In this document: positions 9,950 through 30,116 of the stretch, piece by piece
How the letters are laid out: each line of letters opens with the position of its first letter
How positions within the stretch are numbered: the first letter of the stretch is position 1
Source: an uncultured Planctomycetales bacterium
GTDB lineage: Bacteria > Omnitrophota > Gorgyraeia > Zapsychrales > JANLHA01
NCBI GenBank assembly: GCA_964574575.1
Contig: CAZNNZ010000003.1
Location: 1 to 39,711 of the forward strand
Direction of reading: 5' to 3'
DNA: 39,711 bases
The notes under the pieces: model-generated
The model's input: the letters and a program-made list of their open reading frames with translations, nothing else
What the model was told of the DNA's origin: nothing
Database searches by the model: none
Made by a program: the position numbers and the translations under genes

Positions 9950-11251
9950 CTAACTTAAGGGCTGGCCAGTCGAGGCAAGGACACCCATCCACAAAATTCC
10001 TTTCGTATCGACCTTTTTTTTCTTACTGACAGCCATCGAAATCGGGATATTAGCAAACGTCCCATTGAGGAAACTGACGACCATTTTGGTCTTTCCGGCC
10101 ATAGCCGCATGAATCGCATTGCGTGCAAACTGATCGCAAAGGATCGCATCATCGACATTCGCGGGAACACTGCGGATAAAATAACTCGGGTCAAAATATT
10201 TGACCTCGGTAGGTACATTAATATTTTTAAAATACGAAATAATCTGTTCTTTAAGATAAACACCGATATCGCCATAACGTTTATTACCGGAATTATCTTT
10301 TTGTGCCGGCAACTGGCTCATTAACTCTTGTCCTGCGCCTTCAGCGACAACCACCAGCGCATGATGAGTCTCATTAAGTCGCTTGCGCAAATTTTCTAAA
10401 AATCCATTGGGGCCTTCCAGCACTATAGGAATCTCGGGAATCAGACAAAAATTAACCTCCTGACTAGCTAAAGTTGCTACCGCAGCAATAAAGCCCGCAT
10501 CGCGTCCCATCAATTTAACAAGTCCCACACCGTTATACGCGTTTTCGGCTTCAACATGGGCGCAACTTAAAATCTGCCGTGAAATTTCGGCGGCGGTAGC
10601 CAATCCAAAAGTACGGGTCATATACATGACATCGTTATCAATGGTTTTTGGAACACCAATAACAGAAATCGGTAATTTACGTCTTGCAATTTCCTCGGCA
10701 ACGTCATTGGCACCGCGCAGCGTCCCATCACCTCCAACGCATAAAAAAATATTAACTTTTAATTCAACCAGATAATCAACGATAACATTAGCTGGTTGCG
10801 GTCCCCGAGAAGAACCCAAAATAGTTCCCCCTTTTTCATGGATGTGACCGACCGTTTCTGGAGTCAACCTCATGGGAGCAAACCCAAGTTGAGGATTGAG
10901 CCCCGCATATCCATAGCGAATGCCCCAGATATTTTTAACGCCATAATTATAGTAAAGTTCCCTCACCGCCGAACGGATCACATTATTAAGCCCTGGGCAA
11001 ATTCCCCCGCAGGTCACAATCGCCGCGGTGGTTTCTTTGGGATCAAAAAAAATATTTTCGCGCGGTCCAGCTTTTTCAAAAAAGATATCGGCAGGTAAAT
11101 CAGATCGCGTACCAGACTCAACCGCATAACGCACACGCGCTTGATCAGAAACAAAAATATTACCGTCGCCACGAGATTCAGCGGCCAATCGCAGTGGCGA
11201 CTTAATGCTTGGAGTTCCCAACACTTGAATTTGAGTATTTAAAGATTCCAT
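9950..11251 (-). CDS. pfk: 6-phosphofructokinase (PfkA superfamily, about 430-aa long form; phosphoryl donor uncertain)
   Basis: Motifs TCGGICPGLNNVIRS, VGGDGTLRGA, GVPKTIDNDV and MGRDAGFIA are the PFK active-site blocks. Confidence 0.9.
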   Translation of the reverse strand: MESLNTQIQVLGTPSIKSPLRLAAESRGDGNIFVSDQARVRYAVESGTRSDLPADIFFEKAGPRENIFFDPKETTAAIVTCGGICPGLNNVIRSAVRELYYNYGVKNIWGIRYGYAGLNPQLGFAPMRLTPETVGHIHEKGGTILGSSRGPQPANVIVDYLVELKVNIFLCVGGDGTLRGANDVAEEIARRKLPISVIGVPKTIDNDVMYMTRTFGLATAAEISRQILSCAHVEAENAYNGVGLVKLMGRDAGFIAAVATLASQEVNFCLIPEIPIVLEGPNGFLENLRKRLNETHHALVVVAEGAGQELMSQLPAQKDNSGNKRYGDIGVYLKEQIISYFKNINVPTEVKYFDPSYFIRSVPANVDDAILCDQFARNAIHAAMAGKTKMVVSFLNGTFANIPISMAVSKKKKVDTKGILWMGVLASTGQPLS

Positions 11252-11268
11252 AGTTTTTAAATGAGGGT

Positions 11269-12174
11269 TTACTTTTCACTCTCCAATTTGTCTTTAGCCG
11301 CGACTAACTCTTTAAGCTTGTTAGCATCAACCTTAGGAAACTGTAAACCCAAACGCGAAAGTTTATCAACAACCGCAGCGGCCACCACCAGACGCGAAAA
11401 CCATTTATTGTCGGCTGGAACCACGTACCATGGAGCATACGGCGTTGCCGTTTCGCGAATCATGTCCTCATACGCTTGCATGTATTCATCCCAATAGCCC
11501 CGTTCATTCATGTCAGCCGAAGAAAATTTCCAATTCTTCTCCTGAATATCCAACCGCTCTAAGAATCGTCTCTTTTGTTCCTCCTTGGAAAGGTGCAAAT
11601 AAAACTTGCAAATCGCAATCCCGTTACGAGACAAATAACGCTCATAGCTGCGAATATCCTGATAACGTTCTTCCCAGATATTTTTGGTGATCAAATCACC
11701 CGGGATTTTTTGTTTTTGAAGATATTCCGGATGAACACGAACCACCAAAAGCTCCTCATAATAGGAACGATTAAAAATCCCTATGCGTCCTCTCGACGGA
11801 AGCTTCTTAGAACAGCGCCAAAGATAATCGTGTTCCAAATCTTCACTGGTTGGCGACTTAAAAGAACTGACTTCACAACCCTGCGGATTGACTCCCGACA
11901 TAACGTGCTTAATAGCGCCATCTTTTCCTGCGGAATCCATGGCCTGAAAGATCAAAAGAACAGACCATTTGCCATTGGCATATAATACTTCTTGAAGTTG
12001 AGCCAGCGCCTCTACACCCATCTGCAGAATTTCTTTGGAACGCGGTTTATCGGCATCACTCAAATGCTGAATGTCCTGCGGGTCGATATCCTTAAGTCGA
12101 AATTTCTTTCCTTTTGTAACCCGATACGGCTTACAAAAAACTTTGGCTCTTTTAATCAACTCTTTGGTCTTCAT
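11269..12174 (-). CDS. ppk2: Polyphosphate kinase 2 family protein (single-domain polyphosphate:nucleotide phosphotransferase)
   Basis: LLIFQAMDSAGKDGAIKHVMSGVNPQGCEVSSFKSPTSEDLEHDYLWRCSKKLPSRGRIGIFNRSYYEELLVVRVHPE is the PPK2 Walker-A-like/lid core. The protein is 301 aa. Its ATG overlaps the atpA TGA (ATGA at 12171-12174). Confidence 0.9.
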   Translation of the reverse strand: MKTKELIKRAKVFCKPYRVTKGKKFRLKDIDPQDIQHLSDADKPRSKEILQMGVEALAQLQEVLYANGKWSVLLIFQAMDSAGKDGAIKHVMSGVNPQGCEVSSFKSPTSEDLEHDYLWRCSKKLPSRGRIGIFNRSYYEELLVVRVHPEYLQKQKIPGDLITKNIWEERYQDIRSYERYLSRNGIAICKFYLHLSKEEQKRRFLERLDIQEKNWKFSSADMNERGYWDEYMQAYEDMIRETATPYAPWYVVPADNKWFSRLVVAAAVVDKLSRLGLQFPKVDANKLKELVAAKDKLESEK

Positions 12175-14039
12175 TTAACCTCCACAGGTTTAGGCTCAAC
12201 CTCAGTCGAGGCAGCGGTCTTGATTAAAGCATATTTTGCTCTCATATCCGCAATCTCTTTTTGATATTTAGCCGCATCCGGAGAACCCGCCGGACTATAG
12301 TTGAGATTTTTGTAAGCACCGGTTAAAAGCGTGAAATACTCCCGTACCTCATCTTTGTTTTTGAAGTTGTATTCGCAGTCAATCAAACTTTTAAGCAAAC
12401 GAAAACTTTCCAACTGTCTTTCACGAGGCATGGAAATATCGACCGCATCAAATGCATCCTGCTGAAGATACACCATGTCAAACAGAGTCGCTTTTTGCCA
12501 ACGGATATAATCTTCAATCGTAACACCCTCTTCGCCAGTGACTTGCATCATCTGGTAAATACTTTCTCCCTGCGCAATCAAACTTTGCATCGCTTTAATA
12601 TCCAAGACCCAATTTTTATCGATATTTTGATTAAACCAATCTTTGAGTTGGTCCAAATATCGCGACCAGGAAATCAAAGGATCAATAGCAGGATAATAAC
12701 GCTTGTAAGCACGGGCATAAGAAAGCCCCAAAAACGATTTTACCGTCGCAAGTGTTGCTTGGGTGACCGGTTCTTCAAAATTACCACCCGCCGGAGAAAC
12801 GGTTCCAATCATGGTCAAACTTCCTGTTGATCCATCTGGGCAGCGCAGAACGCCGGCCCGCTCATACACATTTTTAATTGCAGACTCAAGATACCCGGGA
12901 AATGCTTCCTCGCCGGGAATCTCTTCCATGCGGCCCGAGGTTTCACGCATAGCCTGTGCCCAGCGCGAAGTTGAATCCGCGATAACCAAAACGTTATATC
13001 CCATTTGCCGATAATATTCACCAATGGTCATCCCCGTATAAATAGATGACTCGCGTGCAGCCACAGGCATGGAAGACGTATTACAAATAATAATAGTCCT
13101 ATCCATCAATGACCCACCAGTCTTAGGATCTTTGGTATTAGGATATTCAGCGATTGTTTCGACAACTTCGCCCGCTCTTTCGCCGCAGGCAACAATGATG
13201 ACAATGTCAACCGTTGCATAACGCGCAATCAAGCTCTGCAAAACCGTCTTTCCAGCACCGAACGGACCGGGAATACAGGCCGTACCACCTCTGGCAATTG
13301 GAAAAAACGAATCAATGATTCTAATTGTTGTCGTTAAAGGTTCACTCGGATAAAGCCGTTCTGCCGTCCGGTTCTTGAGCATAACCTGCGGAATCGGACG
13401 TCGCACTGCCCAAGGCTGAGCCATTTTAAGATTTATTGTCTTACCATCGGCAGTACGAACAACAGCCACTGTTTCTTCAACGGAAAAATTTCCTTTTTGT
13501 ATTGAAACGACCTCAACTTCCTCTTTGATATGAAAAGGAACCATGATCTTATTTGTAAAGTGACCTTCGGGAGTCGTGCCAATTATCTGACCGGCGACAA
13601 GTTTAGCGCCCACTGCAACCGCCGGAGTAAATTCCCATTTTTTTTCGGTATTCAGTGGATTAATGTCTTTGCCGCGAGGAAGGAAAAAACCATACTTTTC
13701 GGCAAAAACCGACAGCGGATTTCCCAAACCGTCAAAAACCCCGCCCAAAAGGCCAGGCCCCAAGTTAACCGAAAGCATCTGCCCGGACATTTCAACGCTA
13801 TCCCCGACCTTAACTCCGCTGGTGTCTTCAAAAACCTGCATGTCCGCAGTTCGCCCGCGAATCCGAAGAACTTCGGCCCGCAAACGTTCTTGACCCATAC
13901 AAATAAAGCCAACCTCATTTTTTCGGATCGCACCATCCAACACTTCGATGGTCACAAGGCTTTCGCGCACCTCTACGATCTTGCCTATGATCTTGCCGGC
14001 TTTTTCTTCAGAATTTGATAAACTTTGCATTTTCATCAT
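12171..14039 (-). CDS. atpA: V-type ATPase catalytic subunit A
   Basis: 622 aa with Walker A GPFGAGKTV, the typical V/A-type insertion between the N-terminal barrel and the nucleotide-binding domain, and the SRWAQAMRETSGRMEEIPGEEAFPGYL block. A GGGGAGG SD lies just upstream of the ATG cluster at 14039/14036/14030. Confidence 0.95.
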   Translation of the reverse strand: MMKMQSLSNSEEKAGKIIGKIVEVRESLVTIEVLDGAIRKNEVGFICMGQERLRAEVLRIRGRTADMQVFEDTSGVKVGDSVEMSGQMLSVNLGPGLLGGVFDGLGNPLSVFAEKYGFFLPRGKDINPLNTEKKWEFTPAVAVGAKLVAGQIIGTTPEGHFTNKIMVPFHIKEEVEVVSIQKGNFSVEETVAVVRTADGKTINLKMAQPWAVRRPIPQVMLKNRTAERLYPSEPLTTTIRIIDSFFPIARGGTACIPGPFGAGKTVLQSLIARYATVDIVIIVACGERAGEVVETIAEYPNTKDPKTGGSLMDRTIIICNTSSMPVAARESSIYTGMTIGEYYRQMGYNVLVIADSTSRWAQAMRETSGRMEEIPGEEAFPGYLESAIKNVYERAGVLRCPDGSTGSLTMIGTVSPAGGNFEEPVTQATLATVKSFLGLSYARAYKRYYPAIDPLISWSRYLDQLKDWFNQNIDKNWVLDIKAMQSLIAQGESIYQMMQVTGEEGVTIEDYIRWQKATLFDMVYLQQDAFDAVDISMPRERQLESFRLLKSLIDCEYNFKNKDEVREYFTLLTGAYKNLNYSPAGSPDAAKYQKEIADMRAKYALIKTAASTEVEPKPVEVK

Positions 14040-14691
14040 AAACCTCCCCTACTAACGTTTCAAAACGTTTCCGTGCCTCTTCTGGATTAAATCCCAACCA
14101 ATATTGCAAAATGTTCCATTTAAAAACATACGCCACGATAGATTCGAACATAAATTCTTTTCCGGCAGAAAATTGATCAATTCGTTTCCACGTTTGATTT
14201 AAAATAAGCCGTTCTAACTCCAGCGTTTCTCCAGCATGAAGAAGTTCTCGAACCTTAGGAATCCACGGATAAACTCCAGCCAGACGGAAATCCGGATCAT
14301 CCCAATTCTTTTCAATATGTCCGACAAATCGCCCTAAGCCCCAAGCTTGACCAGCGGCTGGCGCCGGCAAACCGCGAAATTTTCTCCTTAAACCAACCAT
14401 GATCGTCCGCTCCGAAATCCTAAAAAGTATAAAATCTTTCAACTCATCCGGCATAGGCAATTCTGTCAACAGTCTATATTGTTTAACCAACTCTGCGTCA
14501 TTTTCTTTTTTAGCTTGCCCTCTCCAAAAAAGAAATGATTCAATGCTTTTAAGTAATTGAGCATCTTCGGATTCTAACATTCCCAGACGCAGGACAAGTT
14601 TTTCCCGTGTAATAGGCAACCGCTCGGCGCGATCAAAGTGCGGCAAAACAGGAAGACTCGTTACCAAAGTATAATAATATATGTTGGCCAT
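14008..14691 (-). CDS. DUF2764-family protein (the uncharacterised seventh gene of bacterial E/DUF2764/A/B/D/I/K V-ATPase operons; possible C/d-like subunit)
   Basis: The N-terminus MANIYYYTLVTSLPVLPHFD resembles the YYYL(V/A)SSLP(x)L start I associate with DUF2764. It sits between subunits E and A, as in the Chlamydia/Bacteroidetes-type operon. It is 227 aa and overlaps atpA by 32 nt. Confidence 0.7.
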   Translation of the reverse strand: MANIYYYTLVTSLPVLPHFDRAERLPITREKLVLRLGMLESEDAQLLKSIESFLFWRGQAKKENDAELVKQYRLLTELPMPDELKDFILFRISERTIMVGLRRKFRGLPAPAAGQAWGLGRFVGHIEKNWDDPDFRLAGVYPWIPKVRELLHAGETLELERLILNQTWKRIDQFSAGKEFMFESIVAYVFKWNILQYWLGFNPEEARKRFETLVGEVYDENAKFIKF

Positions 14692-14706
14692 AGGGTGTTT
14701 TTATTC

Positions 14707-15372
14707 CTATTCCCGAACAATTTGTCTGTATCGAGGAAGCAAATGTTGAACTAAAAGATCAGTTAAGGCTTTCTCTGTAAGATCGATCTCAAGGTCTTCA
14801 TTCTTAAGCTTAACGCGTATACCAGCACTTGCTCCCGGGCTAGACTTAAATTCAATTCCTTCCCGCAACATATCACGCGTAATTTTTAAAATAAAACCTT
14901 TAATGCGATCTTCTGCGACATCAGGTTGTTCCTTTGTTTCCTGCGTTGACAACAGTCCTGCGGATAACAGCATCTCAATGTCTTGTTTTACTGGGATTTG
15001 GGATCCGCTTTTTCCTGCGATTGCAATAATCATCTCATGCAAAACATTAGTATCCTTTAGTTCTGCGGCAACGAGCCGACGAACATGCGATTCAAAAGCC
15101 GTCCTGACTTCTTTACCCAATCGAAGAACCGAATCACGGGCAGCTAATTTCAAAGCTTCCAGAGAAGCGGCTTTCTCTGCCGCAATCTGATTATCTGATT
15201 TGTCCTTTTCGGCTTTTGCTTCTGCCTTCGCTTTTGCAACGATAATTGCGGCATCTTCTTTGGCCTTAAGAATCATCTTTTGCGCTTCCTCTTTAACCGC
15301 CGCAATCCCATCATTGCGGATCTGATCAATAAGTTCCTGAACTCCGGATATTGTTTGTGTCGTTTCCGCCAT
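14707..15372 (-). CDS. atpE: V-type ATPase subunit E (peripheral stalk)
   Basis: 221 aa. It has a long charged coiled-coil N-terminal half (KEEAQKMILKAKEDAAIIVAKAKAEAKAEKDKSDNQIAAEKAA) and a globular C-terminal half. It begins 2 nt downstream of the atpK stop. Confidence 0.8.
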   Translation of the reverse strand: MAETTQTISGVQELIDQIRNDGIAAVKEEAQKMILKAKEDAAIIVAKAKAEAKAEKDKSDNQIAAEKAASLEALKLAARDSVLRLGKEVRTAFESHVRRLVAAELKDTNVLHEMIIAIAGKSGSQIPVKQDIEMLLSAGLLSTQETKEQPDVAEDRIKGFILKITRDMLREGIEFKSSPGASAGIRVKLKNEDLEIDLTEKALTDLLVQHLLPRYRQIVRE

Positions 15373-15374
15373 GA

Positions 15375-15824
15375 TTATTTACCTCCTAATGAACCCATAA
15401 GAATAAGGGCAAAGACAAACACGAAAACCGAAAAACCCTCGATAATCGCGGCCGGTGCCAATGAAATACCAAAAATTTCTGGCTTATTTTTTGAAGCATT
15501 AATAGCCGCCGCGCAACAAGCACCTTGCCGAATAGCGCTAATCATAAGCCCTAAGCCACAAAGCAAACCAATCGCAAAAATACCCGGCGCAACATTGGCA
15601 TCCATCGGCCTGTTCAAAGCCAACATAATGACGATTCCATAAATCGTCTGCGATGAAGGCATAGCGGAAACGCCAATATAGCGACCGTGTCCTGAATCGG
15701 TATCCACCAGCGCACCACACGCAGCAGCACCGGCGCTTGCGCAACCGATACAACTACCGATAGCTCCCAGTGCCAGCGGTGCATAAACTCCGATCCACCC
15801 TAATGTTATAATTATTTGTTCCAA
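15375..15824 (-). CDS. atpK: V-type ATPase proteolipid subunit K (4-TM c-type subunit)
   Basis: 149 aa and Gly/Ala-rich, with four hydrophobic helices and the essential carboxylate in PAAIIEGFSVFVF. It has a TTG start at 15824 preceded by a perfect AGGAGG. It overlaps the end of atpI by 13 nt. Confidence 0.85.
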   Translation of the reverse strand: MEQIIITLGWIGVYAPLALGAIGSCIGCASAGAAACGALVDTDSGHGRYIGVSAMPSSQTIYGIVIMLALNRPMDANVAPGIFAIGLLCGLGLMISAIRQGACCAAAINASKNKPEIFGISLAPAAIIEGFSVFVFVFALILMGSLGGK

Positions 15825-17602
15825 GGTACACCTCCTTTAATTTCGAAAGGCCGAAATGGCCGTCCGTCTTCATACATGCTCCAGTTAAAAAATTCAATCA
15901 CATTTAAACGCAAACCGTGTACAACACAACTCATAATCGACAAAATAAGATTCATCACATGACCAAAAAGAAGAATCAATACACCAAAAATAATCCCCCC
16001 AATTCCGGGAACTCCATCCATAGACTGTTTGGCCAAACTATTAAACGTTGCCCCCAACGAAGCGCCAGCCAAACCTAAAGCAAAAAGTCTTAAATAACTT
16101 AAAACATCGCCGAAAGCTGAGCTTAAACGAGTCAAAGAAGAAATCCCCCCAAAGATTCGTTTAAAAATATTCTTGTTCGGGGACGCGAAAAAAGTAAGCA
16201 TCAAAGCGCCTGCTGCTGCGGTCCAAATTCCAATCATTTTAATCATTGCCGTTGAGGGATCTTTCGATCCTAAAGCCATAACAAATCCGCCCACAATAAT
16301 GGCCAGCCATCCTAACGGGACAAAAGCTTCAGTGGACTTGCGTTTGCGCCACGCATCCGCAATATTCGCCAGAGAAAGATGAAAAACACCAATCGATAAA
16401 GAAATAAGCATCATCATCGATGAATTATTCATATCAAGAATTTTGAAATTTCTTAAAAACGATCCCACAGCCGGTTCAACGCCAAAATAACTTCCCACCA
16501 TAATTCCCCAGACAACCGAGGCCCCCAAAATCGCGGCCAGCAAATTGCGCATCCGTTTGCCGCCTTCGTTCTGACTCATCTTTTTCCATTTCAAAGCCAA
16601 AAAAATCGACATGAGCAATGCATAACCAGCGTCTGACAAGATCATCGCAAAGAAAATAACAAACGAAATAAAAACGACTGCCGACGGATCCCACATCCGA
16701 TAACCCGGTGTCATATAAAACGTGACCAAATCGGCACCACCGGCTAGAAGCGGAGAATTTTCAAGAAGTGTCGGAACAGCTTCATTCGCATCCGGCTCGC
16801 GCTCAGATAAAGCCGCATGAAAATCCTTGGCGGATTGACGTAAAGCTTCAAGATTTTTTTTGGGCACCCAAGCTTGCAGAGCAAATAATTGTTCTCGATC
16901 GAGCGTCTGTTGACCTACTTCGGTGCGCAGCGCCTGATTTTCAAGCAGAAAAATATTATGATGATAAAGCTTGCCCCAGCGACTGAGCTTACGCCTTTTA
17001 TCGCTTAAGTCATACAATTCTTCTTCAACCTCATCAAGCCGATTTTCTAATTCAGATAAAGATTTCGAACCCGTATGAACTCTTTCGACCGGCATATCCT
17101 GCGGTTCATCTTTTGCAACGACGACAACATAAGTGAAACGATCATCTTTTTTAATAATTTTCCATACACCGGGACGCGAAAAAACAGCCTTAATGTCCTT
17201 ATTGGGAACCACATAAAACCAAAACCGTAAACCATTCATCTCTTCAAGCGGGGCAAACACAAAAGACCCCCAAGGCTTAAGCGCCTCAATGCGGCTGACA
17301 AGAAAATCCTTTTCTTCATTGCGACGGTCTATCGTCTCTCGCAACTCAAGCGCCTCTTTCTCAATAGCAATAGCATCAAATTTTTCAAGATCATTGACTT
17401 GCCGCGGCTTAAGAGGAGTATCTTCAAGAAAATGCAACACATCGTGCGCCTGCACAGTAGGCCCGGCGACTTCTCTTAACGCCGCTTCGCGAGCTACCGG
17501 AATAATTTGCAGGCAACCCATGGATTGCAAAACTTCAAGAGTCTTTTCCTTATCTCTCGACAATCCGCACCAGATAATTTTACTTAAAGGAAGTATGCTC
17601 AT
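15812..17602 (-). CDS. atpI: V-type ATPase subunit I (membrane a-subunit)
   Basis: About 597 aa. A soluble N-terminal half with coiled-coil segments is followed by multiple TM helices and the conserved arginine helix (VVHGLRLNVIEFFN). I prefer the ATG at 17602 (MSILPLSKIIWCG) over the track's GTG at 17608. Confidence 0.9.
   Translation of the reverse strand: MSILPLSKIIWCGLSRDKEKTLEVLQSMGCLQIIPVAREAALREVAGPTVQAHDVLHFLEDTPLKPRQVNDLEKFDAIAIEKEALELRETIDRRNEEKDFLVSRIEALKPWGSFVFAPLEEMNGLRFWFYVVPNKDIKAVFSRPGVWKIIKKDDRFTYVVVVAKDEPQDMPVERVHTGSKSLSELENRLDEVEEELYDLSDKRRKLSRWGKLYHHNIFLLENQALRTEVGQQTLDREQLFALQAWVPKKNLEALRQSAKDFHAALSEREPDANEAVPTLLENSPLLAGGADLVTFYMTPGYRMWDPSAVVFISFVIFFAMILSDAGYALLMSIFLALKWKKMSQNEGGKRMRNLLAAILGASVVWGIMVGSYFGVEPAVGSFLRNFKILDMNNSSMMMLISLSIGVFHLSLANIADAWRKRKSTEAFVPLGWLAIIVGGFVMALGSKDPSTAMIKMIGIWTAAAGALMLTFFASPNKNIFKRIFGGISSLTRLSSAFGDVLSYLRLFALGLAGASLGATFNSLAKQSMDGVPGIGGIIFGVLILLFGHVMNLILSIMSCVVHGLRLNVIEFFNWSMYEDGRPFRPFEIKGGVPWNK
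15831..15836 (-). promoter_or_regulatory. Shine-Dalgarno (AGGAGG) for the TTG start of atpK, embedded in the 3' end of atpI
   Basis: Plus-strand cctcct at 15831-15836 is AGGAGG on the minus strand, 6 nt upstream of the TTG at 15824..15822. Confidence 0.55.
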
Positions 17603-17656
17603 AGGCACTCACTTCTAACTGAAACATCGGTTGATCAAATAATTATTAATACAGTT

Positions 17657-19798
17657 CTAAAGTTTATATTCCCCTGCATCGATAACACGCAAAACGACCA
17701 TAGACCTTGCACTCAAAGGCAACTGCTCTACTTCGCCAATATTCTGAGGATGAGCTTTTCCATCGACGGAATTACAGATAAGTTCCCATTTAAATTCTCT
17801 GGCCCTTTGACCTAATTTAAATTTTACAGGCTCATGACTTGCATTAAAAAGAATTAAAAATGAATCGCCTTTAACGGGTTCCCCGGCTTCATCAACTTCA
17901 TCGATTTGATTGCCCACCAAACCAACCCCCAAGCAACGGACATGATCTGCTCGCCAGTCGTTTTCGGTCATTTCCGTTCCCTGTGGCATCAGCCAATAAA
18001 TATCTTTAACATCATTCCCATAAAGCGGCCGGCCATGAAAAAAAGTGCGTCGATGGAAAACTGGTTGCTCTTGCCTAAGCGCTATAATCTGACAAACAAA
18101 TTCCATAAAATCACGCTGATCCGCCGTCAAATCCCAATTTAGCCACGTTAGTTCATTGTCCTGACAGTACGTATTATTATTACCTTTTTGTGTTTGGCCA
18201 AACTCATCGCCCGCTAGCACCATCGGAATTCCCTGAGAAAAAAGCAATGTCAAAAGAAAATTTTTCCTTTGTTGCACGCGCAATTTATTGATCAATTCAT
18301 CCGAAGTCTCACCCTCTGCTCCACAATTCCAAGAAAGGTTTCCATCCGTGCCATCACGATTATTCTCTCCATTGGCTTCATTGTGTTTTTGATTATAACT
18401 GACCAAATCATTTAAAGTAAAACCATCATGCGCTGTCAAAAAATTGATACTCGCGTAGGGCTTTCTCCCATTCCAAGCATAAAGGTCACTGGAACCCGAA
18501 AACCGACTGGCAAATTCTCCAACAGTGCCGCCATCACCCTTCCAAAATTTTCGAATGCAATCACGGTATTTTCCATTCCACTCGGCCCAGCCAGCCGGAA
18601 AATTTCCGACCTGATAGCCACCAGCGCCAAGATCCCATGGCTCGGCGATCAGCTTAACTTGAGAAAGAATCGGATCTTGGTGAATAATATCAAAAAAAGC
18701 CCCTAATTTATCAACATCATAAAGTTCTCGAGCTAAAGTACTGGCAAGGTCAAAACGAAATCCATCGACGTGCATTTGAGTAACCCAATAACGCAAACTA
18801 TCCATAATAAGTTGCAAAACACGCGGATGCTGAACATTCAGTGAATTACCGCACCCCGTAAAATCGACATACGACCGCCCATCTTGCGCAACCCTGTAAT
18901 AAGCCGTATTATCAATGCCTCGCATAGATAAAGTCGGCCCAAACTGATTGCCTTCCGCTGTATGGTTGTACACAACATCAAGAATCACTTCAAGACCATT
19001 GGCATGAAGAGTTTTTACCATGGATTTAAATTCATTAACAGCCCCTTGCGATCCACAAGCTGAATAACGAAAATGCGGCGCAAAAAAACCTAAAGTGTTA
19101 TACCCCCAATAATTCACAAGATTTTTTTCAATAAGAAAATAGTCATCAATCGAAAAATGAACCGGCAAAAGTTCAACAGCGGTTATCCCTAAGTCTTTCA
19201 AATGTTTAATGGCTGGCGGTGTCGCCAATCCCGCATATGTTCCACGGAGCTTTTGCACAACCTGCGGATGGCGCATAGTAAAACCTTTAACATGCATTTC
19301 ATAAATCACAGTTTTATGCCAAGGAATGTTAAGTAAGCGATCTTGGCCCCAGTCAAAATCATTTTCAATAACACGAGCCAATGGGGCAAAAGCCGAATTA
19401 TCTTGCTCATTAAAAGAAAGATCATCACGGTTTGAATCCGCATGATAACCAAAAAGTGAGGCATCCCAAGTTAATGGACGACCAATAGATTTGGCATATG
19501 GATCCAATAAAATTTTATTGGGATTAAACCTATGTCCTTTCTGCGGCTCATAAGGACCATGGACACGATATCCATAAAGTTGCCCAACTTTGACCTGAGG
19601 GATATAACAATGCCAGACCTGATTGGTATTTTCCTTAATCTCAATACGTTGTGTTTCTTTGACCGTATTGCCGTCGGAATCAAAAAGGCACAGTTCGACT
19701 TTTGTCGCATTCCCAGAGAATAAGGCAAAATTGACACCTTGCCCATTCCAAGTGGCACCCAAAGGATACGCTGATCCGGGACAAATGCGCATAACCAT
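17657..19798 (-). CDS. glgX: Glycogen debranching enzyme (GH13, GlgX type)
   Basis: N-terminus GSAYPLGATWNGQGVNFALFSGNATKVELCLFD, plus the GH13 catalytic blocks VILDVVYNHTAEG, GFRFDLASTLAR, IAEPWD and FLTAHDGFTLNDLVSY. Confidence 0.9.
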   Translation of the reverse strand: MVMRICPGSAYPLGATWNGQGVNFALFSGNATKVELCLFDSDGNTVKETQRIEIKENTNQVWHCYIPQVKVGQLYGYRVHGPYEPQKGHRFNPNKILLDPYAKSIGRPLTWDASLFGYHADSNRDDLSFNEQDNSAFAPLARVIENDFDWGQDRLLNIPWHKTVIYEMHVKGFTMRHPQVVQKLRGTYAGLATPPAIKHLKDLGITAVELLPVHFSIDDYFLIEKNLVNYWGYNTLGFFAPHFRYSACGSQGAVNEFKSMVKTLHANGLEVILDVVYNHTAEGNQFGPTLSMRGIDNTAYYRVAQDGRSYVDFTGCGNSLNVQHPRVLQLIMDSLRYWVTQMHVDGFRFDLASTLARELYDVDKLGAFFDIIHQDPILSQVKLIAEPWDLGAGGYQVGNFPAGWAEWNGKYRDCIRKFWKGDGGTVGEFASRFSGSSDLYAWNGRKPYASINFLTAHDGFTLNDLVSYNQKHNEANGENNRDGTDGNLSWNCGAEGETSDELINKLRVQQRKNFLLTLLFSQGIPMVLAGDEFGQTQKGNNNTYCQDNELTWLNWDLTADQRDFMEFVCQIIALRQEQPVFHRRTFFHGRPLYGNDVKDIYWLMPQGTEMTENDWRADHVRCLGVGLVGNQIDEVDEAGEPVKGDSFLILFNASHEPVKFKLGQRAREFKWELICNSVDGKAHPQNIGEVEQLPLSARSMVVLRVIDAGEYKL

Positions 19799-19821
19799 TT
19801 TACCTTTCCAAAATTAATCTC

Positions 19822-21300
19822 TCACCTGTGGTGAGCAGCATCAAAATCATTTTTACGAACTTTCTCTGATCTAGGATGCGTTCGCAAGAATTTGAGACTA
19901 TAATCTTCATCGGGACGAATATCCGAAGGTCCCGATACCAAAATAACCCCATCGCCTGTCATTTGCGCTTTTTTCATCCAAGACAAAACAAAATCCGAAA
20001 CATTTTCGGGGAAGCTTTCGACTTCAACAGGATTAACACCATAAGAAAAATGCAACATTTGACACACCACAGATCTTGTCGAAAAAGCGATGATCCAAAC
20101 CGAAGATTTAAGACGCGAAATCATCCGCGCGGTGTCCCCATTTTGTGTCGGCACAAAAACAGCAGAGAACGGCGCCGTTTGCAATGCCTTTTGAACAACA
20201 GAAGCAATCGCTTCAGCAACTTTAAAAGACTTTTGCGGCTGACCATCATTTTTAACATCTCGTAAAGGATCGACTGAACGGTGATTTTCAGTAAATGACG
20301 CAATTTCACCTAGCATCATAACGGCTTCTTTCGGATACTTCCCAATCGCCGACTCTGCCGAAAGCATAACGCAATCCGTTCCGTCTAAAATCGCGTTGGC
20401 AACATCCGTGGCTTCCGCACGCGTGGGTAAACGGCTGGACACCATCGATTCCAACATTTGTGTGGCCACAATAACCGGCTTGCCGCTTTGATTGCATTTG
20501 AGAATCAAGCGCTTTTGTATCACCGCAATTTCTTGAATAGGAACCTCAACGCCTAAATCCCCACGAGCCACCATAATCCCATCCGCGGCACTAAGAATCT
20601 CATCAATATGATTCAATGCCCCTGCCCGTTCGATTTTGGCAATGATCATGACATTTTTGCCGATCGCATGAGCCACTTCTCGCACAGCTTGAATATCCGC
20701 AGCTCTCTCGACAAAAGATTGACTGACAGCATCAACGCCATGCTCTAGAGCAAAAACAAGACAGTCCCTATCATGATCGGTAAATGCACTGATCCCCAAA
20801 TTAATCCCGGGAAGACTAAGTCCTTTTCGAGAACGAAGTTCTCCACCAACTAAAACCGTGCAAATAACTTCTTGACCGTCGATTCGATTAACCTGCAAAT
20901 GAACCAAACCATCGTTAAGATAAAGTTTGTCGCCGGGCTTGACAACTTGCGGCAAAGTTTTAAAAGAGACAGAAACACGCTGACTGTTACCCACAATATC
21001 TTCTGTCGTTAATATAAACGTCGAGCCACTTTCCAAATCAATCGATTTAGTGTCAATCTCTCCAATTCGCATTTTAGGACCCGGAAGATCTGCCATAATA
21101 GCGATACGCTTACCCGTGGCAAGTTCTGCCGCTCGAATAAGAGTGATCGTTTCAGCATGCGCATCGAATTGACCATGCGAAAAATTAAGTCGCGCAACAT
21201 TAACGCCCGCTAAAATAAGCTGTTTAATCATCTCAGACGAATTGGAAGCCGGCCCGATAGTGGCCACGATCTTTGTTTTATGATTAGCCAACTGCGACAT
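19822..21300 (-). CDS. pyk: Pyruvate kinase
   Basis: KTKIVATIGPASNS, NVARLNFSHG, IIAKIERAGAL, MVARGDLGVEVP and ATQMLESM are canonical pyruvate kinase blocks. 492 aa. Confidence 0.95.
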   Translation of the reverse strand: MSQLANHKTKIVATIGPASNSSEMIKQLILAGVNVARLNFSHGQFDAHAETITLIRAAELATGKRIAIMADLPGPKMRIGEIDTKSIDLESGSTFILTTEDIVGNSQRVSVSFKTLPQVVKPGDKLYLNDGLVHLQVNRIDGQEVICTVLVGGELRSRKGLSLPGINLGISAFTDHDRDCLVFALEHGVDAVSQSFVERAADIQAVREVAHAIGKNVMIIAKIERAGALNHIDEILSAADGIMVARGDLGVEVPIQEIAVIQKRLILKCNQSGKPVIVATQMLESMVSSRLPTRAEATDVANAILDGTDCVMLSAESAIGKYPKEAVMMLGEIASFTENHRSVDPLRDVKNDGQPQKSFKVAEAIASVVQKALQTAPFSAVFVPTQNGDTARMISRLKSSVWIIAFSTRSVVCQMLHFSYGVNPVEVESFPENVSDFVLSWMKKAQMTGDGVILVSGPSDIRPDEDYSLKFLRTHPRSEKVRKNDFDAAHHR

Positions 21301-21330
21301 TTTATCCTCTTGTTCTTTCTAAAAATCGAA

Positions 21331-22332
21331 TCATTCCAACACTGTTCCTTTAATAAAAGGCTGACCCTGCGTTAAATTCACAATATTAGTCACCGTCATG
21401 CGCGAAATATCAGCTAAAGCTTCCGCCGTTAAAAATGCCTGATGCGAGGTAACAATAACATTAGGAAATGTAAGCAAACGCGACAATTCATCATCCTGCA
21501 AAACCAAACCTGAAAGGTCTTCAAAGAAAACCCCTTCTTCTTCTTCATACACATCCAGAGCAACCCCACCCAACTTTCCTGTTTTAAGCGCATCAATTAA
21601 AGCCGCCGTATCAACCAACTTTCCGCGACTGACATTAATAAGAATCGCGCCGGGCTTCATCAAGTCGATTGTTTCCCGACGAACAACGAATTTTGTCTCA
21701 GTAGTTAAAGGAAGATGCAAAGACACGACATCGCTTTCTCGGGCCAATGTTTTAGCGTCAACATATTCTGCCCCGCATTTTTTTGCCCAATCTTCCTGCT
21801 TAAATACATCAAAAACAAGCAATTTCATACCAAATCCTTTAAGGATCTCGGCGGTAATACGCCCGATTCTTCCTGTCCCCAAAATGCCCGCAGTCTTGCC
21901 ATGCAAATCCATTCCGACAAGGCCATTGAGAGAAAAATTCTGATCCCGGACACGGTTGTAAGCCTTATGAATTTTTCGATTAAGTGTCAATAAAAGTGCG
22001 ACGGCGTGTTCGGCAACAGCATAGGGTGAATATTCGGTAGCCCTTGTGACGGCAATCTGCAATTCTTTGGCCGCGCCGATATCAACATTATTAAATCCTG
22101 TGCAGCGCAAAACGACAAGCTTAACACCACACTTAGCCAAAATTTCAAGACAAGAGCGGTCTACTTTATCATTCACAAAAACGCAAACGACTTGAGACCC
22201 TTGCGCCGACAAAGCCGTTTCGGGCGTCAAACGAAAATCCAAAAAACGCCACTCAATCTCTGAATTTAAAGCCGCACTCTCAAGCGAATCCCTATCGTAA
22301 GTTTTTGTATCGTAAACACTAACTGTTATCAT
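21331..22332 (-). CDS. ldhA: D-lactate dehydrogenase / D-isomer-specific 2-hydroxyacid dehydrogenase (LdhA-like)
   Basis: MITVSVYDTKTYDRDSLE...WRFLDFRLTPETA parallels the E. coli LdhA N-terminus. The NAD site is GILGTGRIGRITA and the catalytic region is NVSRGKLVD...TSHQAFLT. I use the ATG at 22332, which forms an ATGA overlap with the glgP stop, rather than the track's upstream start at 22371 inside glgP. Confidence 0.85.
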   Translation of the reverse strand: MITVSVYDTKTYDRDSLESAALNSEIEWRFLDFRLTPETALSAQGSQVVCVFVNDKVDRSCLEILAKCGVKLVVLRCTGFNNVDIGAAKELQIAVTRATEYSPYAVAEHAVALLLTLNRKIHKAYNRVRDQNFSLNGLVGMDLHGKTAGILGTGRIGRITAEILKGFGMKLLVFDVFKQEDWAKKCGAEYVDAKTLARESDVVSLHLPLTTETKFVVRRETIDLMKPGAILINVSRGKLVDTAALIDALKTGKLGGVALDVYEEEEGVFFEDLSGLVLQDDELSRLLTFPNVIVTSHQAFLTAEALADISRMTVTNIVNLTQGQPFIKGTVLE

Positions 22333-24881
22333 AACGATGCTCTTTGGTTCTGAACTGGCTTGACATTCCAAATCTTTTGCGCATACTCACTGATCGAACG
22401 ATCTGATGAGAACTTTCCACTGCGCGCGACATTTAAAATAGACATCTTGGCCCACTTTTTTTGATCTTGATAAGCCCCAGAAACTTTCTCCTGACATGCA
22501 AAATAAGAAGAAAAATCGGCACAAACAAGATACTCATCATGCGACGAAAGTGAATTGACTAAAGAACCAAAAACTTCGCGGTCCCCTTTAGAGAAAAATC
22601 CACAACGAATCTGTTCAACGGCTTCTTTTAATTGATCATTGGCATTGATATAATCCCCCGGACGATACCCCGAGGATTTAAGACGCTCCACTTCTTGCAC
22701 AGTCAAACCAAAGAGAAAGAAGTTTTCTTTTCCAACTTCTTCCATAATTTCGACATTAGCGCCATCAAGAGTTCCGATCGTCATAGCACCGTTAAGCGCA
22801 AACTTCATATTCCCAGTTCCCGAAGCTTCCTTACCAGCCGTCGAAATTTGTTCAGAAAGTTCCGCTCCCGGATAAATTACCTGACCATTCGTAACATTAA
22901 AATCCGGGAAATAAACAACCTTAAGCTTTCCATTTATCGATCGGTCATTATTGACAACGTCCGCAATCGATGTAATCAATTTGATCATACGTTTAGCCAT
23001 AAAATATCCAGGAGCCGCTTTACCGCCAAAGATGACTGTTCTGGGAGTTTTAACGGACTGAGGATCACGTTTCAAACGATTGTACAAAGCAATCACATGC
23101 AGCGCGTTAAGATGCTGTCGCTTGTATTCATGAATTCGTTTGACCTGAACATCAAAAAGTGTTGTTGGGTCAATCGTAAGCCCGGTTTTATGCTTAATCA
23201 AATTTCCCAAACGGCTTTTATTTTCTAATTTAATTTTCATCCAGCGCTGACTAAAAGAAGCATCGTCGGCAAAGCGTTCAAGTTTACGCAAGTCCTCCCA
23301 ACGAATGAGCCATCCGTCGCCGATTGCATCCGTAATAAGCGCCGTCAGACTAGGATTGCTCAAAGCCATCCACCGACGCAATGTCACGCCATTGGTGATA
23401 TTAAGAAACCGCTGCGGATAAATTTTATAAAAATCAGCTAATACGGTTTTTTTGAGCAATTCACTGTGAAGTGCGGCAACACCATTGATCGCATGACTCC
23501 CCGCCGAGGCAAGGTGAGCCATACGGACAAACTTAGGTTGAGTTTCATCAATCAGCGATAAACGCGAGACTATTGCTTGATCCTCTGGAAATTTGGCTTG
23601 GACTTCAGTTAAAAAGCGTCGGTTGATCTCATAAATAATTTCCAAATGTCTTGGGAGCAAAGATTGAAATAGCGGCACAGACCATTTTTCTAAAGCTTCA
23701 GATAATAAAGTGTGATTTGTGTAAGCAAAGCTGGCACACGTTATTTTCCATGCCACGTCCCAGTCTAGCTGTTCTTCATCGACAAGAATACGCATCAATT
23801 CCGCAACGCCGATGGACGGATGAGTGTCATTAAGCTGAATCGCAAAAGTTTCATGGAAACGGTCTAAAGAAAGCCCGCGCAGACGAAGCATCCGCAGCAT
23901 GTCCTGGATAGAACAAGAAACAAAGAAATATTGCTGGGCCAAACGCAGTTTTTTGCCAACTTCGGGCTCATCGTTGGGATATAAAACTTTTGAAATTGTT
24001 TCGGAAACGATCTTTTCATCGACAGCTTTATAATAATCGCCGGTATTGAATGCTTCAAAATTAAAAGACTCAACCGCCTGCGCGCTCCATAAGCGTAAAA
24101 TATTAACCATGTCCCCGCCATAACTTGGCACCGGCGTATCGTAAGCATTACCCTTAATTATCCGATTAGGAATCCAACGAACACGATCGTGGCCCTTTTC
24201 ATCTTTTTCAATTTGCGTATGCCCACCTAACTTAACTTCATAACAAATTTCTGGCCTTGCAAATTCCCAAGGATTTCCCAACCGCAACCATTTATCAGTT
24301 TTTTCAACCTGCCAGCCATCTTTTATTTCCTGATCAAATATCCCAAATTCGTAACGAATGCCATAGCCCATCGCAAGGATTTGCAGCGTCGAAAGCGAGT
24401 CCATATAACAAGCGGCCAAACGCCCAAGCCCGCCATTACCCAAACCGGGTTCTTCTTCCTGTTTTAAAAGCGTATCCAAATCAATCTTATATTTATCCTT
24501 AAATAACTCAACAGCCTCTTTGGCTGCATCATAAATTCCCAGATTAATAAGAGCATTCCCAAGATGCGGGCCCATCAAAAATTCGGCAGAAAGATAACTG
24601 ACGACTTTTACTTTTTTGTCATCGGAAAGACGCTTTAAAGTTTTACTCCATCTTTCCATCATCAAATCGCGGCTGCTATAAGCTAGTGCTAAATACCAAT
24701 CATTAACCGTCGCAAGTTCAACAGTACGCCCTAATGTGGAAAGCAAATGATTCTCAATTGCTTGCTTAATGGATGCGGCAGTCGCGGCAGGCTGGATTTT
24801 TAATGCCAGTGATGGGGTTGCTTTTTTTTCAACAGAAACACTTTTTTCTTTAGGCGCAACAGATAAAATCTTTGGCGACAT
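22329..24881 (-). CDS. glgP: Glycogen (alpha-glucan) phosphorylase
   Basis: 850 aa. PLP-lysine block EASGTGNMKFALNGAMTIGTLDGANVE, plus GNGGLGRLAACYMDS and RIHEYKRQ, are classic GT35 signatures. Confidence 0.95.
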   Translation of the reverse strand: MSPKILSVAPKEKSVSVEKKATPSLALKIQPAATAASIKQAIENHLLSTLGRTVELATVNDWYLALAYSSRDLMMERWSKTLKRLSDDKKVKVVSYLSAEFLMGPHLGNALINLGIYDAAKEAVELFKDKYKIDLDTLLKQEEEPGLGNGGLGRLAACYMDSLSTLQILAMGYGIRYEFGIFDQEIKDGWQVEKTDKWLRLGNPWEFARPEICYEVKLGGHTQIEKDEKGHDRVRWIPNRIIKGNAYDTPVPSYGGDMVNILRLWSAQAVESFNFEAFNTGDYYKAVDEKIVSETISKVLYPNDEPEVGKKLRLAQQYFFVSCSIQDMLRMLRLRGLSLDRFHETFAIQLNDTHPSIGVAELMRILVDEEQLDWDVAWKITCASFAYTNHTLLSEALEKWSVPLFQSLLPRHLEIIYEINRRFLTEVQAKFPEDQAIVSRLSLIDETQPKFVRMAHLASAGSHAINGVAALHSELLKKTVLADFYKIYPQRFLNITNGVTLRRWMALSNPSLTALITDAIGDGWLIRWEDLRKLERFADDASFSQRWMKIKLENKSRLGNLIKHKTGLTIDPTTLFDVQVKRIHEYKRQHLNALHVIALYNRLKRDPQSVKTPRTVIFGGKAAPGYFMAKRMIKLITSIADVVNNDRSINGKLKVVYFPDFNVTNGQVIYPGAELSEQISTAGKEASGTGNMKFALNGAMTIGTLDGANVEIMEEVGKENFFLFGLTVQEVERLKSSGYRPGDYINANDQLKEAVEQIRCGFFSKGDREVFGSLVNSLSSHDEYLVCADFSSYFACQEKVSGAYQDQKKWAKMSILNVARSGKFSSDRSISEYAQKIWNVKPVQNQRASL

Positions 24882-24932
24882 TGACAGCCTCCTGAAATTT
24901 AAAACGTTTGCTTCAATATCAATCAGACGATT

Positions 24933-25547
24933 TTAAACACTCTCTTCTACTAGAGCGGCCTGATTTTTTTGTTTCGAAATCTTAGAACGAACAACCGCCG
25001 AACGTTCAGCATCACCTAAAAATATCTGTATACGTGAAATAGTTTCTTTACATTCAGGAATCAAAATTTTTTCAAAAAGATTGACCTTCTGAGTAATACG
25101 GCGTAATCCCACTTCCAAACGCTCAACCTGAATCTTTGAAGCCTCTTGCTGAGCTTTTAACATCGCCATTTGCTTTAATTTTTCAACCACATCATCAACC
25201 CAATGGCGCCGAACAAGCATCGAATACGGGGCGACTTCACAAATCACTTCATCAACAACAGGAATTCTGATTCCGACGATATTGTCTTCACGCGATTTAA
25301 CTTCCTTAACTGTGACCAATCCTGAAAGATTGATTTCGGGATTAGCTATCATAGGAAGTTTTTTACCGACATCCTCCATCAAAGCCTTGACCGCTGTAGT
25401 TGATTTTTCGTATTTGATTTTGGCCTTGGCCAACTCGCCAGTGAGCTGTTGACGCTTAAGATCCAATGACGGCAAAAGTCCTTTATAGAGCTTCATTTGC
25501 TCACGGACTTTTTGTAGAGAACTTTTACTAAATGAAATCTTTGCCAT
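24933..25547 (-). CDS. atpD: V-type ATPase subunit D (central stalk)
   Basis: MAKISFSKSSLQKVREQMKLYKGLLPSLDLKRQQL... and the C-terminal ITQKVNLFEKILIPECKETISRIQIFLGDAERSAVVRSK are typical D-subunit coiled-coil ends. The ATG at 25547 lies 7 nt after the atpB stop. The longer track start at 25619 overlaps atpB and adds a non-conserved basic leader. Confidence 0.85.
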   Translation of the reverse strand: MAKISFSKSSLQKVREQMKLYKGLLPSLDLKRQQLTGELAKAKIKYEKSTTAVKALMEDVGKKLPMIANPEINLSGLVTVKEVKSREDNIVGIRIPVVDEVICEVAPYSMLVRRHWVDDVVEKLKQMAMLKAQQEASKIQVERLEVGLRRITQKVNLFEKILIPECKETISRIQIFLGDAERSAVVRSKISKQKNQAALVEESV

Positions 25548-25554
25548 ATGCTTA

Positions 25555-26910
25555 TTATTTTTGAGCAACAACCTCAACAGCGCCAGCAGTTTCTTTCTTC
25601 GGATAATATTTATCGACAAGATTCTGCTTAATCAGCAATTCCTTTGAATCAAAACATTCGGCCAAAGTCTTCCAACAAAGATCCAGCGCTTCGTTTAACG
25701 GTATTGACACATGAATATCCATGAATCGGCTCTTAAACAGTGAACCGTATTTTAACAATTTTTCATCGAATGCCGAAAGCTCAAAAGCCATTGCCTTCTT
25801 TTTTTCAGCTTCTTTAGCACCCGCATAAAACCGTATCATGGCATTCATAATCTGCGAGTGATCCTCACGAGTGACTTTTCCAATAACATGCTGTTTAAGA
25901 CGGGACAAAGATCCGAAAGGATCAATGATCTTATCATGCAAATAAAATTGCCCTTCGGTTATATAACCGGTATTATCCGGAACCGGATGGGTCACATCAT
26001 TGCCGGGCATGGTCGTTACTGAAAGGATCGTCACAGAACCCGCTCCTTTATAATCACAAGCCTTTTCATACCGGGAAGCCAGCTGCGTATAAAGATCTCC
26101 CATATACCCGCGGGTCGCCGGAATACGCTCGAGAGAAATGCCAATTTCCTTCATCGCATCAGCATAAGAGGTCATGTCGGTCAAAAGAACCAGAACACGC
26201 TTTTTTTCCTCAACAGCAAATTTTTCGGCAACTGCCAATGCCATATCAGGAACCAACATTCTTTCAACAATCGGATCCGAAGCCAAATTAACAAACATCA
26301 CCGTACGATGAAGAACGCCATGATCCTCAAAAGCCTTTTTAAAAAAATGAAAATCGTCAAAAATAAGCCCCATCCCGCCAAAAACAACAATTTCAGCATC
26401 CGCTTGAAATCCAATGCGGGCTAAAAGTTCATTAAACGGTTCCCCTGAAACAGAAAAAATCGGTATTTTCTGACTCTCAACAAGACAATTAAAAAGATCA
26501 ATCATCGGCACATTTGTTTCAATCATCTTTGACGGCATAACACGCATCATCGGATTGACAGTTGGCCCAGCAACATGGATCTTAGGATCATTAGAAATAT
26601 CCGGTCCACCATCAATCGGACTTCCTGATCCGCCAAAAATTCTGCCTAAAATATTGGGAGAATATGTCGCTTCAAAAGGATGCCCAAGAAAGCGAACCCC
26701 CGCATCGGTAGAAATCCCTTTGCCGCCTGAAAAAACCTGAAGACTAACGCGGTCGCGATTTAATTGGACAACGCGCGCAAAAGATGATTCTCCGTCAGTA
26801 TTATCAACAACGGCAAGATCACCTAACGCCACATTGTCAGCTTTCACTACAATCACGTCACCAATAATCTCGAGCACGCGCGTATGCCTAAAAATTTCAG
26901 GAATCGTCAT
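25555..26910 (-). CDS. atpB: V-type ATPase subunit B (non-catalytic)
   Basis: 451 aa with the family blocks PATRGYMGDLYTQLASRYEKA, SVTILSVTTMPGNDVTHPVPDNTGYITEGQFYL and a degenerate P-loop region. An AGGAGG SD lies upstream. Confidence 0.95.
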   Translation of the reverse strand: MTIPEIFRHTRVLEIIGDVIVVKADNVALGDLAVVDNTDGESSFARVVQLNRDRVSLQVFSGGKGISTDAGVRFLGHPFEATYSPNILGRIFGGSGSPIDGGPDISNDPKIHVAGPTVNPMMRVMPSKMIETNVPMIDLFNCLVESQKIPIFSVSGEPFNELLARIGFQADAEIVVFGGMGLIFDDFHFFKKAFEDHGVLHRTVMFVNLASDPIVERMLVPDMALAVAEKFAVEEKKRVLVLLTDMTSYADAMKEIGISLERIPATRGYMGDLYTQLASRYEKACDYKGAGSVTILSVTTMPGNDVTHPVPDNTGYITEGQFYLHDKIIDPFGSLSRLKQHVIGKVTREDHSQIMNAMIRFYAGAKEAEKKKAMAFELSAFDEKLLKYGSLFKSRFMDIHVSIPLNEALDLCWKTLAECFDSKELLIKQNLVDKYYPKKETAGAVEVVAQK

Positions 26911-30109: not shown

Positions 30110-30116
30110 AAGTTGG

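Follow-up and report, generated by a model that had tools for sequence, protein, structure and literature searches.

Why should the operon of a rotary ATPase be interrupted by genes for the breakdown and fermentation of glycogen? The question is raised by contig CAZNNZ010000003.1 (39,711 nucleotides, analysed whole and hereafter called the window) from an uncultured bacterium of the GTDB phylum Omnitrophota (assembly GCA_964574575.1), on which 13 open reading frames (ORFs), from atpB to pfk, follow one another on the minus strand. Identification with Pfam and NCBIfam found all of them at the places, and in the order, that an earlier, sequence-only reading of this DNA had given: atpB-atpD, glgP-ldhA-pyk-glgX, atpI-atpK-atpE-DUF2764-atpA and ppk2-pfk (Table 1). 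All seven subunits of the bacterial 7-gene V-type ATPase (V-ATPase) are encoded (A, B, D, E, I, K and DUF2764), with four genes of carbon catabolism, 7.2 kb in all, parting atpD from atpI. Our results show that this insert is rare among related operons, that the ATPase of four metagenomic relatives has a carbon-catabolic gene at the same place, and that genes of the same kind recur beside this ATPase in unrelated phyla. That the array genetically couples an ATP-driven Na+ pump to ATP generation from storage polymers is, in our judgement, an evenly balanced proposition, and the evidence on its two sides is weighed below.

Relatives of AtpI were aligned, and 80 loci from species-representative genomes were fetched with 10-kb flanks, onto which the proteins of the window were mapped. 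These loci come from more than 10 phyla and include Methylococcaceae, Chromatiales, Desulfobacterales, Syntrophobacterales, Planctomycetota, Gemmatimonadota, Myxococcota, Nitrospirales, Waddliaceae and others; a metagenome scan with the single AtpI returned one distant locus only (L082), which brings the set to 81. The order B-D-I-K-E-DUF2764-A is found in 80 of the 80 related loci, and the seven genes are contiguous in 79, the exception (L055) being a second, unrelated interruption of this operon type by one inserted gene. Nothing lies between atpD and atpI in any of the 80, nor in L082, and the four-gene insert (~7.2 kb) is therefore rare; since the order is normal in all the related loci, it represents a single discrete change. 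The sequence-only reading had described the operon as both split and permuted, and had proposed a synteny check on the neighbours of atpB, atpD and atpI. Once run, this check upheld the split, the insert being absent from 81 other loci and a carbon gene lying 5' of atpI in four relatives, and did away with the permutation as a peculiarity of the window: the placing of E-DUF2764-A after K is the standard order of this clade. The 7-gene operon of Bacteroides and Chlamydia is ordered E-DUF2764-A-B-D-I-K, of which the order of the window's clade is a cyclic permutation, the window differing further by the four metabolic genes that interrupt it. In the published Bacteroides operon, DUF2764 is the second gene (bioRxiv 10.1101/2023.05.11.540287).

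The four closest relatives of the window's AtpI all come from Joint Genome Institute (JGI) metagenomes, and in each of them a carbon-catabolic gene lies directly upstream of atpI. Contig P0002 (AtpI 76% identical) carries ldhA-pyk-glgX-atpI-atpK, with pyk 75% identical to that of the window; in P0003 (AtpI 66% identical) atpI shares 4 nt with a gene whose product has at least 555 aa; in L081 (60%) it is glgX (76% identical) that overlaps atpI by 4 nt, followed by K-E-DUF2764-A; and P0005 (56%) has pyk-atpI-K-E-DUF2764-A, a variant without glgX. A further contig from the same sample as L081 (L086) carries glgP (75% identical) and then ldhA (77%). In a neighbour-joining tree, the AtpI of the window and those of the four relatives form one clade, the nearest outgroup being a Ca. 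Auribacterota protein, so that the operon split is best read as one ancestral event in a small uncultured lineage, across which GC content ranges from 43% to 53%. Because the four relatives also have a carbon-catabolic gene upstream of atpI, the junction on this side is no assembly artefact. The other junction, atpD|glgP (24882-24932), is seen in no other contig, because those of the relatives end before it, and the atpB-atpD block could in principle have been misjoined to glgP in metagenome assembly. We consider such a chimera very improbable: the GC content at third codon positions is uniform (0.35-0.45) across all genes, without a compositional break, there are no repeats at the junctions to mislead an assembler, and the independent confirmation of glgX|atpI in relatives means that their atpI is already separated from atpD. 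A tetranucleotide comparison of segments had little power to discriminate in the matter of chimerism, other organisms scoring 0.57-0.87.

As for the origin of the insert, the best named relatives of its Pyk belong to Planctomycetes and Verrucomicrobiota (66-67% identity). A stand-alone cluster of similar content, pfk-ldhA-pyk-glgX-pckA-ThrE-fba-glgP, lies on L083 (7706-20325) with no ATPase in 21 kb of sequence; L083 and L084 (GC 63%) share pfk-ldhA(70%)-pyk(67%)-glgX, L083 being the longer contig, with pckA, fba and glgP downstream. A carbon cluster of this type is likely to be the kind of cassette that acted as donor. The adjacencies of an RND efflux system to atpB and of atpA to ppk2 both recur in uninterrupted loci, and the simplest history would be that a pre-existing glycogen/fermentation cassette was inserted into an (RND)-B-D-I-K-E-DUF2764-A-ppk2 array. 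Neither mobile-element scars nor flanking repeats were found at the boundaries of the insert. Such an event might have been neutral, the cassette having landed in a permissive intergenic site and been inherited there with its own expression signals and no functional coupling to the ATPase, an explanation that we hold to be possible but rather unlikely. No gaps in the array are longer than those at the boundaries of the insert (51 and 54 nt); both are AT-rich and could hold promoters. Moreover, L055 (Methylococcaceae UBA6146) has an unrelated gene, encoding a 601-aa Laminin_G_3/DUF2341 protein (7557-9362), between atpB and atpD, which suggests that the operon tolerates apparently neutral insertions. 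However, the junction with atpI has been kept down to 56% AtpI identity and across the GC shift from 43% to 53%, and the 4-nt overlaps with atpI in two of the relatives are typical of coupled translation.

The spacing of the genes bears on whether the 13 genes could be expressed together. Recomputed with the most plausible starts, the distances from atpB to pfk are 7, 51, -4, 30, 23, 54, -13, 2, 15, -32, -4 and 17 nt, which reproduces exactly the 12 values of the sequence-only reading, the 4-nt overlaps being those of ldhA with glgP and of ppk2 with atpA. The atpD ORF can be extended to 25619, but the ATG at 25547 gives the 7-nt gap and the NF002565 match begins at residue 25 of the long ORF. 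An AGGAGG Shine-Dalgarno site stands before atpB and another before glgP. The absence of terminators from the gaps, also claimed earlier, agrees with our calculations, as terminator-like sites are not enriched in the window (25 versus 21.0 +/- 4.9 in shuffles) and the RNAs of the junctions fold no better than shuffled ones (z = 0.0, 0.49 and 0.90). A search of the whole window (39.7 kb) for Rfam families and tRNAs found neither. Taken together, the gaps and overlaps, the lack of terminator-like hairpins and the Shine-Dalgarno sites are indirect signs that atpB to pfk may form a single co-transcribed unit.

In spite of its interruption, the ATPase looks intact and functional. The Walker A motif of AtpA is GPFGAGKT (residue 258); AtpB is without a P-loop, being 66-81% identical to the atpB products of the related loci, and AtpI has the conserved stator arginine, R507 in SYLRLFALG, which is invariant in 19 sequences. 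An orthologue of atpE, at 27-61% identity, stands at the same position in nearly all loci that reach so far, with none detected in the degenerate L057. The DUF2764 gene is 33-64% identical to the gene at the same position in 65 loci and on this comparison is clearly its orthologue; a profile search of this protein, which may be a C/d-like subunit, against PDB sequences gave no match, and a single-sequence AlphaFold model was unusable (predicted local distance difference test, pLDDT, 42). AtpK, of 149 aa, has two PF00137 stretches and the carboxylate E129. In the alignment with Enterococcus hirae NtpK (2BL2), its S58, Q59, Q100, E129 and Y62 correspond to T64, Q65, Q110, E139 and Y68, and M55 stands at the position of L61. 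Serine is a conservative substitute for T64, and L61 takes part through its backbone carbonyl. The published list of NtpK Na+ ligands comprises L61, T64, Q65, Q110 and E139 (PMC9006882). Since these ligands are kept in the K subunit of the window, coupling of its V-ATPase to Na+ is predicted; across the clade, 70 of 78 K subunits retain S-Q...Q...E.

Except for the contiguity of its operon, the enzyme of the window is in every tested feature a member of the known 7-gene family of Bacteroides fragilis, Porphyromonas and Chlamydia, with the same seven protein families, no separate C, F and G genes, and the same duplicated K subunit carrying the Na+-ligand residues. With the Na+-V-ATPase of E. 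hirae it shares the K-ring ligands, with the two replacements named above, and the proposed role, that of an ATP-driven Na+ pump in a fermenting cell. The ntp operon of E. hirae has more subunit genes. Fewer accessory subunits have likewise been noted for the 7-gene type in the study of the B. fragilis enzyme (bioRxiv 10.1101/2023.05.11.540287).

The identities of the metabolic enzymes bear on whether they could feed such a pump. The closest structures to the PPK2 of the window are of class III (6AU0 and 6AN9, 315 bits; 5LC9, 254 bits): its best PDB matches, at 254-316 bits, are class III enzymes of Cytophaga and Meiothermus, as against about 105 bits for class I, and on these matches it is assigned to the class III type, which converts polyphosphate and AMP or ADP to ATP. 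LdhA reached no NCBIfam equivalog cutoff; its best PDB relatives are D-lactate dehydrogenases (D-LDHs; 3WX0, 4CUJ, 5Z20 and 5Z21, 330-346 bits), compared with 126-159 bits for glyoxylate reductase and phosphoglycerate dehydrogenase (PGDH) structures, and its predicted function is closest to a fermentative-type D-LDH. The 6-phosphofructokinase (PFK) has the ATP-dependent enzyme of Trypanosoma brucei as its closest structure, contains the GGDG and PKTIDND motifs and passes the ATP-PFK equivalog cutoff. All three subtypes fit ATP generation. Pgi and Pgm, which link glucose-1-phosphate to fructose-6-phosphate, are encoded upstream of the array, where the sequence-only reading had placed them. Its further statement, that the window encodes the entry, committed and terminal steps from glycogen to D-lactate, stands for the named genes; the middle of glycolysis, fba through eno, is not among the window's genes.

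Table 1. Features of the window, in order of decreasing coordinate, with the profile matches on which their identities rest.
Feature	Position	Strand	Evidence
pgi	37075-38712	-	PF00342, 738 bits
pgm	35426-37078	-	all four PGM_PMM domains
RND efflux system	26957-33636	-	Pfam
OEP (of the RND system)	31261-33636	-	Pfam
HlyD-type adaptor (of the RND system)	30117-31256	-	Pfam
AcrB-type pump (of the RND system)	26957-30109	-	Pfam
atpB, V-type ATPase non-catalytic B subunit	25555-26910	-	NF002555, 712.8 bits (cutoff 431)
atpD, central-stalk D subunit	24933-25547	-	PF01813, 5.2e-35; NF002565, 177.7 bits
glgP, glycogen phosphorylase, first gene of the four-gene insert	22329-24881	-	PF00343, 1092 bits
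ldhA, predicted fermentative-type NAD-dependent D-lactate dehydrogenase (2-hydroxyacid dehydrogenase)	21331-22332	-	Pfam 2-Hacid_dh and 2-Hacid_dh_C
pyk, pyruvate kinase	19822-21300	-	PF00224, 394.8 bits; PK_C
glgX, glycogen debranching enzyme (CBM48 and GH13), last gene of the insert	17657-19798	-	Pfam
atpI, membrane stator (a) subunit, 596 aa	15812-17602	-	PF01496
atpK, double-hairpin c/K rotor subunit	15375-15824	-	NF007200, 172.9 bits (cutoff 108)
atpE, peripheral-stalk E subunit	14707-15372	-	NF002424, E = 1e-26, below cutoff; positional orthologue
DUF2764-family subunit of the 7-gene V-ATPase	14008-14691	-	PF10962, 23.2 bits (cutoff 24.1; weak); conserved position
atpA, catalytic A subunit	12171-14039	-	NF003220, 751 bits (cutoff 470)
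ppk2, class III polyphosphate kinase 2 (assigned)	11269-12174	-	TIGR03709, 386.6 bits (cutoff 247); one PF03976 domain
pfk, ATP-dependent 6-phosphofructokinase	9950-11251	-	NF005301, 617.6 bits (cutoff 400)
DUF3300-DUF2950 pair	7528-9893		
GH63/MGH1-like glycoside hydrolase	4814-7531	-	

If storage polymers and this ATPase belong together, their genes might be expected to meet elsewhere, and in part they do. The position of ppk2 directly after atpA is not unique to the window but is shared by six Methylococcaceae loci, L008, L012, L023 and L041 having ppk2 alone and L001 and L024 the order atpA-ppk2-xfp-glgP, with ppk2 54-57% identical to that of the window and the glycogen phosphorylase gene (62%) a few kb on. 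These clusters differ from that of the window in that the ATPase operon is uninterrupted and the route is that of phosphoketolase, not of pfk, pyk and D-LDH; no description of Methylococcaceae clusters of V-ATPase, ppk2, phosphoketolase and glgP was found in the literature searched. PPK2 tops the Pfam families of the 111 ORFs downstream of atpA and outranks even those of ABC transporters, families that genomes contain in far greater numbers. Besides L001 and L024, glgP lies near the ATPase operon in L021, and an alpha-glucan phosphorylase gene directly upstream of atpB in L036; glgX is near the operon in L038, L047 and L052, pfk follows atpA in L002, and pfk-glgX precedes atpB in L082. Glycogen phosphorylase, GlgX or PFK are thus encoded beside the operon in Methylococcaceae, Pirellulaceae, Planctomycetaceae, Rhodopirellula, Syntrophobacterales and Waddliaceae as well as in L082. 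Phosphoketolase (XFP), which likewise feeds substrate-level phosphorylation, is encoded within 10 kb in 8 of the 81 loci (L001, L024, L028, L033, L036, L038, L061 and L071), which belong to at least six lineages (Methylococcaceae, Nitrococcus, Nitrospirales, Waddliaceae, Planctomycetota and one unclassified). This recurrence of coherent genes (ppk2, glgP, glgX, pfk and xfp) beside the ATPase in unrelated phyla would not be expected of the neutral rearrangement considered above, whereas the fact that most loci of the clade are without such neighbours speaks for it.

In the mechanism that we propose, glycogen would be phosphorolysed and debranched by GlgP and GlgX and the product fed via Pgm, Pgi and Pfk into glycolysis, to end as pyruvate and D-lactate through Pyk and D-LDH, with NAD+ regenerated, while PPK2 would make ATP from polyphosphate. 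The V-ATPase would hydrolyse part of that ATP and expel Na+ (possibly H+), and the membrane would stay energised when respiration is unavailable; with the genes close together and pointing the same way, the makers and the user of ATP could be expressed jointly. Co-transcription, the direction of hydrolysis, the ion specificity and the physiological context of this scheme are what we infer from the genes. The fermentative membrane-energisation module suggested by the sequence-only reading is, in this respect, plausible, given that the enzyme subtypes fit and the linkages recur elsewhere, but its argument from tight spacing is weakened, and this is one of several points that weigh against the proposal. 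All called genes of the 39.7-kb contig lie on the minus strand, GC skew is negative throughout, and short gaps continue beyond the 13 genes (-4, 14, 113, 4, 7 and 46 nt upstream; 56, 8 and -4 nt downstream). The array is thus packed no differently from the rest of the contig, and its spacing is no specific evidence of an operon, a point that also speaks for a neutral insertion. To this must be added the atpD|glgP junction seen in the window alone, the insertion tolerated by L055 and the missing middle of glycolysis. In addition, although 17 of the 81 loci have at least one of ppk2, glgP, glgX, pfk and xfp, about 80% have none of them, and these neighbour counts lack a whole-genome null and a correction for phylogeny. 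Lastly, the direction of the enzyme is unreadable from sequence, and for its relative in B. fragilis the hypothesis put forward is one of ATP synthesis driven by Na+ (bioRxiv 10.1101/2023.05.11.540287).

The last point opens the way to another role for the ATPase, either as a Na+-driven ATP synthase or as a membrane-stress unit acting with the RND pump encoded upstream, to which the carbon genes would be mere neighbours. In B. fragilis the enzyme is essential under the membrane stress caused by deoxycholate (bioRxiv 10.1101/2023.05.11.540287). In the window, the RND efflux system (OEP-HlyD-AcrB), which is on the same strand, stops 46 nt short of atpB. In four Planctomycetota loci (L021, L033, L038 and L052) atpB is directly preceded by an adaptor-AcrB pair, and in L027 (Deltaproteobacteria) such a pair lies one gene away from it, the AcrB of these five loci being 37-55% identical; ACR_tran heads the families found immediately before atpB (5 of 65 loci). 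The adjacency may link a generator of ion gradients with a gradient-driven exporter. We nevertheless think an alternative role of this kind improbable: the window has no gene for a primary Na+ pump (Nqr, Rnf or a decarboxylase) that could build up a Na+ gradient, the 4-nt overlap of a polyphosphate-to-ATP enzyme with atpA fits the supply of ATP to a consumer, and what recurs beside the operon are genes for making ATP by substrate-level phosphorylation.

The proposed coupling of the pump to stored reserves follows the same logic as the metabolism of polyphosphate-accumulating organisms (PAO) and glycogen-accumulating organisms (GAO), which degrade polyphosphate and glycogen anaerobically for ATP, part of which maintains membrane energisation. 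Models of PAO invoke an F-type ATPase and Pit efflux, not a V-ATPase, and the window differs further in that it has the degradation genes but, within its 39.7 kb, no genes for polyhydroxyalkanoate (PHA) synthesis, Pit or acetate activation. Neither a split V-ATPase operon nor a connection of a V-ATPase with glycogen or polyphosphate is described in the literature searched.

Along the contig, pgi-pgm-CoADR and the RND efflux system precede the 13 genes, and DUF3300-DUF2950-GH63-like-SulP follow. The OEP of the efflux system is unusually long (791 aa), with its OEP domain C-terminal and a weak ABC_sub_bind-like match in the N-terminal 330 residues. The DUF3300-DUF2950 pair follows pfk, and homologues of DUF2950 (47-49% identical) adjoin the V-ATPase operon in two Methylococcaceae loci (L041, 4339-5172, and L068, 2650-3465); homologues of SulP and of CoADR-rhodanese also recur beside Methylococcaceae V-ATPase loci, so that with its ppk2, SulP, DUF2950 and CoADR the neighbourhood of the window resembles theirs. 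The GH63/MGH1-like gene consists of two ORFs, of 715 and 179 aa, parted by an in-frame TAA at 5386-5384, directly past which the frame continues (EFLGPYGIRSL), as in a nonsense pseudogene or through a sequencing error.

The permutation in itself is nothing out of the way; it is the conserved insert and the pattern of neighbours across phyla that open the enzyme's physiological role to test. The role of the 7-gene V-type ATPase in respiring bacteria has been stated to be unknown for comammox Nitrospira (PMC7078480), and that of the same type of enzyme for Bacteroides (bioRxiv 10.1101/2023.05.11.540287). The lineage with the insert, together with the ppk2, phosphoketolase and glgP linkages elsewhere, offers a concrete and testable hypothesis for this role, namely that the enzyme spends ATP from stored reserves on pumping Na+ in times of anoxia or starvation. 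The finding also shows that the operon of a multi-subunit rotary motor can carry 7 kb of unrelated genes and remain conserved. The B-D-I-K-E-DUF2764-A clade occurs in methanotrophs, nitrifiers, Planctomycetota, Chlamydiota, Desulfobacterota and others, and a bolder and decidedly tentative idea is that the whole clade is a dedicated "reserve-powered" Na+ pump, partnered across phyla with ATP generation from storage polymers; just as tentatively, its partners would be class III PPK2, acting on polyphosphate, along with glycogen phosphorylase and debranching enzyme as suppliers of either the phosphoketolase or the pfk/pyk/D-LDH route. If this were true, it would explain the presence of a second rotary ATPase in respiring bacteria, and the split operon of the window would be the most extreme genetic fusion of the partnership between pump and reserve.

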